DNA of 64,000 bases from Eledone cirrhosa (lineage: Eukaryota). Under the pieces are notes generated by a model that ran no database searches, was not told the DNA's origin, and saw only the letters and a list, made by a program, of their open reading frames with translations. Shown here piece after piece: positions 5,868 through 24,627 of this stretch (position 1 is its first letter; each line of letters starts with the position of its first letter). The translations under genes were made by a program, and so were the position numbers. The stretch spans positions 23,250,001 to 23,314,000 of the forward strand of contig OZ024748.1 in assembly GCA_964016885.1 (NCBI GenBank), given 5' to 3'.

Positions 5868-6014
5868 GTGCAAATTTATACGGGAACAACACAGAGAGGC
5901 AGACAATGATAAAATGTAAAAACAACCAGACATGTATAAGTAGTGGATACAGATATCTATACCATTATCAGTGTATACACAAGTAGACAATATTATATAC
6001 CATCGACTAGTGCT

Positions 6015-6060
<46 letters not shown>

Positions 6061-6062
<2 letters not shown>

Positions 6063-6262
6063 GTAGGTCCCGGGTTGAGTTGGGGATAACCACAGTAAGT
6101 AAGGTACTCAATACATGGCAGAGTAAAATATATTTATTGTATAGAAGGAGCTTCTACAGGACTAGTACTGTTTCATTCAGATGAAATCTTCAGCTTCCTG
6201 AAGATTTCATCTGAATGAAACAGTACTAGTCCTGTAGAAGCTCCTTCTATACAATAAATATA
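6061..6262. mobile_element. HHR fold-back element, family A (65-bp perfect arms 6129-6193 / 6198-6262) inside (TA)n
   Basis: Perfect inverted arms with a 4-nt spacer (cttc). The tail gtattgagtaccttacttactgtggtta is shared with 24449-24627 and 34849-35040. Confidence 0.85.
6192..6242 (+). ncRNA. Type I hammerhead ribozyme (family A)
   Basis: agcuuc CUGAAGA u-uuc-aucu-gaa-u GAAA cag-uacuaguc-cug UA gaagcu. Stem I is 6 bp. Predicted GUA cleavage after 6236. Confidence 0.85.
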
Positions 6263-6365
6263 TATATATATATATATATAGTTCAAAATGACAAACAAAC
6301 AAACGCAGCAGTCAATGCTACATAGTGTTATATATATATGTCTATGTGTGTGTGTGTGTGTATGT

Positions 6366-6541: not shown

Positions 6542-6586
6542 AACGGTGCTGATGATAGCTAACAAGTTTGAAACTAGTACATCGTT
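6542..6586 (+). ncRNA. Minimal type I hammerhead ribozyme (family B)
   Basis: aacggug CUGAUGA u-agcu-aaca-aguu-u GAAA cuag UA caucguu. Stem I is 7 bp and stem III is palindromic (ACUAGU). A second copy lies at 55886-55928. Confidence 0.8.
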
Positions 6587-6752
6587 CCTGTGTCAGTGTT
6601 GAACAAAAAGGTGATGTGGTTGCCTTAACACCGTATGGCATAAATTCAGGCTGTTCAGTTTTGTTTACAAACGAACAAAGCGGCGTTATAATAAGCGTCC
6701 GCTAAACTGATGCGTGCATATATGTATGTGTACCTGTATGTATATATGTATA

Positions 6753-7012: not shown

Positions 7013-7188
7013 CGAAGGAAATGTGGTAAGGAACCAGGTGGACCATAACGCACCAAAGTACTCAATACTTAGGGTAGTAGAGTGGGTAATAGGAACCGGT
7101 AAGACCCCGACGGCTGAGCTCAAGCCGTTTCGACGGCGAATTAGCCGTCGAAACGGCTTGAGCTCAGCCGTCGGGGTCTTACTGGTTC
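7011..7188. mobile_element. Fold-back element family C carrying the 3' half of an HHR
   Basis: Palindrome centred on gacggc-gaatta-gccgtc, followed by GAAA cggc-uugagcuca-gccg UC gggg. CUGANGA is absent. Other copies lie at ~10060-10178 and ~33005-33192. Confidence 0.7.
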
Positions 7189-7344
7189 ATATATATATAT
7201 ATATATATATAATATGTATATGGTATATGAATACATACATACGTATATATATTTATATATATATATATATATATATTGAGCACTAGTCGATATATGTATA
7301 TATGGTCGATAAGTGTATATGTATATATATATATGTATATATAA

Positions 7345-10616: not shown

Positions 10617-10834
10617 ATATTGTTATACTTTGGGAGGGTCATGTTGCCAATAAGAAACACACGCACCAGTTGCTTTCACTTCAATCAACTATCTGGTTGT
10701 GGAACCAACCAACCAACCAGAAATTTATAGGTTTGTAAATTTGTAAATTTATAAATTTATAAATATATAATAAATTGAAGTGAAAGCAACTGGTGCGTGT
10801 GTTTCTTATTGGCAACATGACCCTCCCAAAGTAT

Positions 10835-24449: not shown

Positions 24450-24627
24450 AATGGCTTCTACAAGAAGCCATCTAGAAGGAAATCATCAGGAAAGCCCGAT
24501 GATTTCCTTCGAATGAAACAGTTCTAGTCCTGTAGAAGCCATTTCTATATTAAATTTATTATATATTCTCTACTAATGTATTGAGTACCTTACTTACTGT
24601 GGTTACCCCCGATTGAACCCGCGACTC
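24449..24627 (+). mobile_element. Family A element, decayed (core CCGAUGA) with partial inverted arm
   Basis: ccgatgatttccttcgaatgaaacagttctagtcctgtagaagcc plus the family A tail. Upstream are inverted pieces aatggcttctaca and gaaggaaatcatcagg. Confidence 0.75.

Follow-up and report, generated by a model that had tools for sequence, protein, structure and literature searches.

The window analysed here, a 64,000-nucleotide stretch of a 3.0-Gb genome (G000:C8:23,250,001-23,314,000), contains several copies of a short hammerhead-bearing repeat, family A, that lie in (TA)n tracts. We number positions within each copy from the C of CUGA (+1); the first base of the 5' strand of stem I is then -6. 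Inverted-repeat analysis of the window showed that copy 1 is a perfect inverted repeat (6128-6193/6198-6263, with 66-nt arms around a CTTC spacer), as is copy 2 (34849-34909/34914-34974, with 61-nt arms around ATTC). An earlier note, made from the sequence of the window, had described both copies as palindromes whose right arm begins at the C of CUGA behind a 4-nt spacer, and the exact repeats bear this out. The type I hammerhead pattern is complete on the plus strand only, with cores at 6198, 34914 and 56171, which agrees with the claim that just one arm of each palindrome holds a complete ribozyme. These sequences contain CUGANGA, GAAA, an NUH triplet and three stems, of which stem I is open, as expected of a type I hammerhead. 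No hammerhead family was found among the 150 of 332 Rfam matches listed, which were microsatellite-like miRNAs and cis-elements below gathering score, nor in a further Rfam search.

Table 1. Family A features in the window (positions of the window).
Feature	Positions	Strand	Description
(TA)n target beside copy 1	6010-6060	.	Similar runs beside copies 2 and 3
Copy 1 tailed arm, SF1	6061-6193	-	From C of CUGA through ribozyme core to distal 3' end (~+130); without stem I 5' strand
Copy 1 short arm	6192-6263	+	Ends in AT-rich tract, then runs into (TA)n
Copy 1 type I hammerhead, complete	6192-6242	+	Stem I 6192-6197/6237-6242; CUGAAGA 6198-6204; unpaired spacer 6194-6197; predicted cleavage 3' of A6236; A6192 = -6, putative RNA start
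Copy 4, SF4 (GGCUUUC/GAAGCC)	24451-24626	.	Rearranged short arm on -, tailed arm on +
Copy 2 short arm, SF2	34849-34909	-	Begins at C of CUGA
Copy 2 hammerhead, complete	34908-34958	+	A34908 = -6; spacer 34910-34913; predicted cleavage 3' of A34952
Copy 2 tailed arm	34908-35042	+	Ends at +129, then (TA)n
Copy 3, lone short arm in (TA)n	56154-56227	+	No inverted partner; 5' end about -17; GUC triplet; hammerhead 56165-56215

The window sequence also agrees with that note on the details of the ribozyme: stem I reads AGCUUC/GAAGCU in one palindrome and AGAUUC/GAAUCU in the other, the stem II loops differ (AUCU, UAAU and UCAC) around a constant UUC/GAA, the cleavage triplet is GUA or GUC, and the tail lies on opposite arms in copies 1 and 2. 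The GUC triplet is rare (2 of the first 100 core matches listed, and 1 of 286 in another set). The proposal that the spacer supplies stem I is right for four of the six nucleotides of its 5' strand and wrong for the AG, which is common to the inverted arm; longer copies naturally carry CCAGATTC or CCAGCTTC upstream, which makes this AG, needed to complete stem I, a microhomology between the arms. Copy 4, absent from the earlier note, has its junction near 24490-24498 in a form other than the 4-nt one. In full-length elements, the counterpart of the copy 2 tailed arm continues into a 5' UTR and then an ORF with its ATG at +176.

Judged by motifs read by eye, family A is the hammerhead-bearing pseudo-LTR (pLTR) of a Penelope-like element (PLE) with Hydra-clade motifs. 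Sequence-pattern matching, on which all genome-wide counts here are based, found 34,755 matches to a core 23-mer and 15,745 to a tail 25-mer, with 0 control matches for each. The elements run from a TATA box through hammerhead and tail to a reverse transcriptase (RT)-GIY-YIG ORF, and insertions sit in (TA)n. Longer copies have TATAAATA upstream, with boxes that we take to be CCAAT and C-rich boxes. One SF2 copy (L216, G000:C1:14,203,500-14,213,400, minus strand) is apparently autonomous, with an intact 713-aa RT-GIY-YIG ORF between two hammerhead repeats 5,966 bp apart and a 3.6-kb microsatellite-rich 3' UTR. Many ORF starts elsewhere in the genome are 97-98% identical to it, which suggests recent activity. 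A frameshifted relative (L076), about 43% identical, lies upstream of a repeat of the copy 1 type (SF1), with about 2.9 kb from ORF start to hammerhead. The 713-aa protein has 1,404 homologs at E<=0.001; in Pfam it matched GIY-YIG at E 0.012, weaker than the curated cut-off, with no RT family match, and the frameshifted SF1 ORF pieces had no Pfam match. A 5'-UTR segment also occurs in short tandem runs with a 191-261 bp period on C3, C4 and C9, two of them with an inverted unit.

Two features are those of EN+ PLEs: in L216, a single pLTR-flanked ORF with RT and C-terminal GIY-YIG motifs as read by eye; and partial insertions, tandem or inverted, that are tailed on one side. RWR and DKT occur in both L216 and L076, RWR being a conservative variant of the Hydra-clade RWK, and L216 has the CxCX5C linker together with the CxxC and CxH around a conserved E and N (CNCLNKEAC, CDLC..E, N..CMH). 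Hydra-clade endonucleases lack a CCHH finger; that of family A, read by eye rather than aligned to the published set, has no CxxC before YIG, one Cys in SF1 and two Cys eight apart in SF2. The RWR, DKT, CxCX5C, CxxC and CxH motifs and the (TA)n targets resemble those described for the Hydra clade (PMC8557442), as do the sense hammerhead (CUGAUGA-U(stem II)U-GAA, with stem III ACAG/CUGU in several members), the layout in File S2 of that work, and the inverted 5'-truncated copy with a one-sided tail. Unlike the Hydra-clade elements described there, for which a length below 3 kb is a general and not a strict trait, L216 is longer from repeat to repeat and carries its long 3' UTR; family A further differs in a stem II of 3 pairs, a loop III of 8 nt, a tail of about 70 nt versus 30-40, and thousands of mini-palindromes. 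The six novel Hydra families in that study include one from Octopus bimaculoides with a different hammerhead (PMC8557442).

We next consider where the two arms meet. Genome-wide, 5,052 loci have CUGA on both arms in head-to-head orientation with a spacer of 0-14 nt (control, 1). By hand count of 50 listed loci, spacers measured 4 nt (6 loci), 5 (11), 6 (10), 7 (7), 8 (5), 9 (1), 10 (5), 11 (3) and 12 (2), and never 0-3. Among the first 100 core matches, which were unselected, 54 arms lay within 33 short palindromes with spacers of -15 to +25, exactly 4 nt in two of them; 20 other arms had a TATA box, 5 had a tail piece as sole partner, and 21 were of other kinds. The junction is thus not fixed at CUGA, contrary to what the two window palindromes seemed to indicate. 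Junction positions relative to CUGA are nevertheless clustered, and so are not scattered at random. The constant feature is a 5' wall, which lies at -6 on the opening base of stem I and is accompanied by a non-genomic G. Of 57 SF1 and SF2 palindromes, a pooled set in which -6 starts are partly enriched, 47 have a longer arm that terminates at -5 to -7 and 2 have one that extends beyond -7; arm ends in the short-palindrome set were called by exact match, and later point mutations disturb these calls. The wall stands at the 5' foot of stem I in every family A subfamily examined, and this coincidence links ribozyme and RNA start in position. Thousands of other arms read straight through: of SF2 arms genome-wide, 10,262 reach -6 and 5,879 reach -9, the latter figure being inflated by tandem arrays and missing one variant. 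Long inverted copies have scattered junctions, and both of their arms pass -6.

From its position and its added base, the wall at -6 looks like the start of a capped RNA, with both start site and cap read from DNA alone. A TSS inside the Penelope pLTR has been described (PMC8557442). In 90 of 101 promoter-bearing arms (SF1, SF2, SF4 and others) the first T of the TATA box lies 35-36 nt from the C of CUGA, so -6 falls at TATA+29/30, and this spacing is kept while the intervening sequence diverges. The natural base at -7 is C. Among 100 listed of 1,385 SF2 arms that begin AGATTC behind a non-natural base, a hand count gave 83 with G and 17 with A or T, the rows being arms of which some are paired; closer examination of loci confirmed the G in 22 of 30. 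Arms that directly abut (TA)n have G in 8 of 11 rows. At junctions with inserted bases, 11 of 14 unselected arms that end at -6 have G, as against 7 of 26 that end further 3'; another 12 arms, whose loci had been chosen for their G, were left out. Among control copies with the natural upstream sequence but a different base at -7, only 3 of 27 have G, so the G is no natural variant. Many of these G's can also be read as microhomology with the other arm.

At 108 loci, both arms end at -6 across a 3-nt centre, which reads C-A/T-G in 50 of 50 listed: one G on each arm, with a single A:T pair between them. The double-G form also occurs in SF1 (L344) and SF4 (L315/L316). From the cap-like G on both arms we read that copying of each reached the very beginning of the sense RNA. 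Full-length L1 5' junctions are likewise described as having an extra G that stems from mRNA capping (PMC11702581). Amplification of a single G-bearing master was considered and rejected: the G is present in three subfamilies, in both SF2 loop variants and beside varied flanks.

A real RNA 5' end at -6 could instead be uncapped, arising by processing, at a splice acceptor or through terminal transferase bias, with the G coming from cap-independent C addition or a 1-nt switch onto the 3' strand of stem I. We consider this improbable. SF1 and SF2 do have a polypyrimidine tract with CAG at -7 to -5, and an intron of D. virilis Penelope ends at the 5' end of helix I (PMC4209133); the arms keep the AG itself, on which ground we rejected a splice-acceptor origin of the -6 ends, and a common upstream exon was not seen among the arms examined. 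SF4 has no AG at this site. It also bears on the stem I switch: in SF1 and SF2 the 3' strand of stem I is followed by C, so a single G at -7 there would also extend stem I by one pair, and SF4 therefore carries the discrimination. In SF4 that strand is followed by A and a switch would add T, yet SF4 has G, in one clear double-G locus and several single-arm cases. The lack of G bias at ends 3' of -6 and the conserved TATA spacing also count against an uncapped end.

The tails indicate how many times the RNA was copied. Exactly one tail is present in 96 of 103 short palindromes, with none in 4 and both arms tailed in 3; this pool includes tail-anchored loci, which forces at least one tail but not at most one. 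All 17 long promoter-bearing palindromes also have one tail. SF2 loop variants agree between arms in 35 of 35 pairs and, since the two variants are about equally common and about half of the pairs would differ by chance, both arms must derive from a single source. Termini lie at about +48 to +70 in short arms and about +129 in tailed ones, which fits the pair of internal RT starts of the Poseidon protein, which cuts and extends both strands and does not need RNA cleavage (PMC11167929). Among 100 tail-anchored copies, 45 have both cores and 10 take the classic twin-priming form, in which the ribozyme is covered by the short arm while the tailed one stops at ~+38 to +80. Inverted parts in family A usually overlap, a pattern like twin priming but unlike the non-overlapping arms of the L1 type. 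Three pairs of loci (L130/L133, L132/L134 and L052/L123) are possible duplicates and were left in the counts.

These data bear on self-priming, whereby a single cDNA folds back or closes as a hairpin, so that DNA copying of the first arm gives the second (compare PMC3846280). Such fold-back accounts for identical arms and a single tail; the window junction can be drawn as a 2-3 bp stem with a 4-nt loop, and short arms end in TA-like tracts able to anneal to the target. It predicts that the tail always lies on the arm that owns the loop. Among 54 pairs, 21 have a tailed arm that extends further 5' than its partner, 23 one that falls short of it and 10 one that matches it, and in window copy 1 the tailed arm also falls short of its partner, so the opposite holds in that copy and in 23 of the 54 pairs. 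The more truncated arm bears the tail as often as the longer arm does, so simple fold-back of one cDNA fails, and these statistics rule it out for about half of cases. Priming across a 1-nt loop with G on both arms is not possible, self-priming cannot yield the non-overlapping arms seen in 10 of 100 copies, and its antisense-template version does not predict a cap signature of the sense strand. Self-priming is therefore an unlikely general explanation, though it may account for part of the junctions.

The palindromes are head-to-head pLTR copies, and we think it likely that each was made by two RT runs on one RNA, both of which ran off at its probably capped start, the stem I foot. In this model a Pol II promoter within the repeat would start a capped RNA at -6, and the element protein would cut both strands of a (TA)n target. 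One DNA end would then prime at the distal site (~+129) and give the tailed arm, and the other at the proximal AT-rich site (~+48 to +70) and give the short arm. Each run would copy the uncleaved sense RNA up to the cap, opposite which it would add C; the distal one would displace the proximal cDNA or, in a minority of cases, stop near it (+38 to +80). The two cDNA ends would finally be joined by end-joining or through 1-8 nt of microhomology. At the 4-nt junction of the window, the terminal CT of one cDNA would pair with the AG complementary to the CUGA start in the other. Long inverted copies would come from read-through RNAs, hence their scattered junctions. We infer strand displacement and the use of a single RNA molecule; two RNAs of one locus, in place of one, would give the same pattern, and the two versions cannot be separated.

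The earlier note proposed that the ribozyme structure is under selection and dictates the junction. The first proposal holds for the source elements. Taking variants common to both arms as source-level changes, we found in 71 of 103 palindrome pairs that 108 fall in loop II, 40 in the 3' strand of stem I, 14 in loop III and 12 at N7; GAAA, stem III and the 5' strand of stem II have none, and the 3' strand of stem II has 1. By contrast, differences between arms, which reflect decay, fall in every stem, loop and core segment. Covariation in stem I, also proposed, is partly upheld: the two compensatory swaps are present, but there are only two such events, a count reached by 122 of 500 shuffles. 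In nine hand-picked copies, a set that left out the bulged SF4 stem, 98.3% of cells pair versus 28-47% in slid controls.

The second proposal, that the fold sets the junction, is in our view very improbable, whether the fold were to stall RT, to provoke a template switch at CUGA or to halt 5'-to-3' decay of the RNA where stem I begins. The coincidence of the wall with the stem I foot in every subfamily examined and the selection on structure speak for it, as do a few junctions that use the 6-nt stem I complementarity itself (L041, L265). Spacers vary widely, however; thousands of arms pass -9 (with the inflation from arrays noted above), and long palindromes pass -6 on both arms. The non-genomic G is left unexplained, and the wall lies at TATA+29/30. 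The predicted fold is weak (RNAfold z = -0.87, 0.63 and 0.62), with only the copy 2 minimum-energy structure hammerhead-like, and an RT moving 3' to 5' would presumably meet the 3' strand of stem I, not its 5' foot. In a second hammerhead family of the window, family B, ends show no pile-up at the stem I foot, with about 4 of 100 rows listed at -4 to -6 by hand count. We also rejected a cleavage-site origin of the junctions, as no more than 1 in 100 tail-anchored copies has its start at the predicted site; genomic copies span the site, and the templates were thus uncleaved. Minimal PLE hammerheads cleave poorly in vitro (PMC4209133). Neither fold nor cleavage site appears to set the junction, but as the RNA start and the stem I foot share one position in every family A subfamily, we disfavour a role for the fold without dismissing it. 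In the reading we prefer, with a capped RNA copied twice, selection keeps the ribozyme in source elements although genomic copies come from uncleaved RNA.

Copies that extend from the 5' repeat towards the ORF behave differently from short palindromes. None of 30 examined (of 102) begins at -6 and most keep the promoter, so long copies need read-through, multimeric or circular templates; four begin at -9 to -12. Retrovirus-like strong-stop transfer as their source is not supported, as read-through copies have no retained or inserted G (3 G in 27, no insertion) and both arms of long palindromes read through. Four other copies of the 30 (L197, L204, L210 and L214) begin at ~+120 to +140, beside the distal RT start of the 5' repeat, perhaps reflecting a stop at a bound complex.

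Repeats with some of these properties are known from minimal PLE hammerheads (PMC4209133) and non-LTR retrozymes (bioRxiv 10.64898/2026.07.22.740005), which likewise have a ribozyme in a pLTR, many dispersed truncated copies, opposite-strand pairs 100-700 bp apart and a palindromic loop III. Unlike the tandem hammerhead units by which retrozymes are recognised, the window copies are inverted pairs or single, and they have U-U rather than G-C at the base of stem II. A retrozyme-like tandem array does occur elsewhere (L217/L218, G000:C1:83.68-83.69 Mb), where 12 units of 1,027-1,113 bp (~1.08 kb), each with promoter, hammerhead, tail and microsatellite-rich 3' UTR, lie downstream of an ORF fragment. 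The strong strand excess among arms that reach -9 (4,244 versus 1,635) suggests far larger arrays elsewhere.

The element class, hammerhead, inverted repeats, tail and (TA)n target of such elements are already known. The origin of PLE inverted repeats and of the one-sided tail is named as open in the sources we drew on (PMC8557442, PMC11167929), and none of the papers listed in a search of the open literature connects the place of PLE inversion with a capped start or describes G on both arms. The closest parallel to the two starts is Poseidon PAc of Anolis (PMC11167929), where two internal RT starts give tailed and tail-less ends, targets are AT-rich, both strands are cut and extended, and the template RNA is uncleaved; unlike in family A, where the ORF begins at +176, the PAc ORF begins inside the hammerhead. 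L1 twin priming (PMC11702581) shares the two cDNAs from two target ends, joined by NHEJ or microhomology, and the extra G at full-length 5' ends, but in L1 the inverted parts hardly overlap and just one of them extends to the cap, whereas in family A both arms usually copy one and the same stretch that far. Penelope of Adineta vaga (PMC3846280) resembles family A in its inverted pLTR, junction palindromes, single tail, and TATA box with an Inr-like motif in the pLTR. It was read as self-priming on an antisense template, whereas family A points to a capped sense template copied twice.

Whether this account extends to PLEs at large is evenly balanced in our judgement. If it does, PLEs would owe their inverted pLTR and one-sided tail to a single capped sense RNA that is reverse-transcribed twice: a dimer would prime both target strands at two starts, the distal run would displace the proximal cDNA, both would reach the cap, and the cap-marked ends would be joined. 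Here the RNA would start on the first hammerhead base, so that any pLTR promoter would spawn promoter-less mini-palindromes, which outnumber ORF-bearing copies more than tenfold. Double reverse transcription of capped RNA would then supersede self-priming on an antisense template as the model, and DNA alone would suffice to read the start sites of such elements.

Several further repeats were seen. The family B hammerhead (CUGAUGA, with a CUAG loop on stem III) occurs in the window at 6544-6690 (+), 55887-55990 (+) and 55852 (-), and matches to its 18-mer pattern number 230; it also lies in (TA)n, partly inverted, and two family B loci hold an RT about 40% related to the family A protein. Family B ends spread from -19 to -4 without a clear cap position, under a pattern that covered 20 nt and excluded natural upstream copies. 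A decayed family A fragment occurs 8 times in 6.7 Mb (L001, L005, L006, L007, L013, L023, L143 and L146) and, its flanks being identical in all eight copies, is carried inside another repeat. Three decayed hammerhead-like units of ~78 nt stand in tandem at L032:238-434. Elsewhere in the window, a GC-rich near-perfect palindrome of about 95 nt, unrelated to family A, adjoins (TA)n at 7095-7190; a MITE-like element with long terminal inverted repeats lies at 10630-10830, with similar sequence in L029; and long degenerate arrays with trinucleotide period occupy 39700-41630 and 57880-58780 in mutually opposite orientation.
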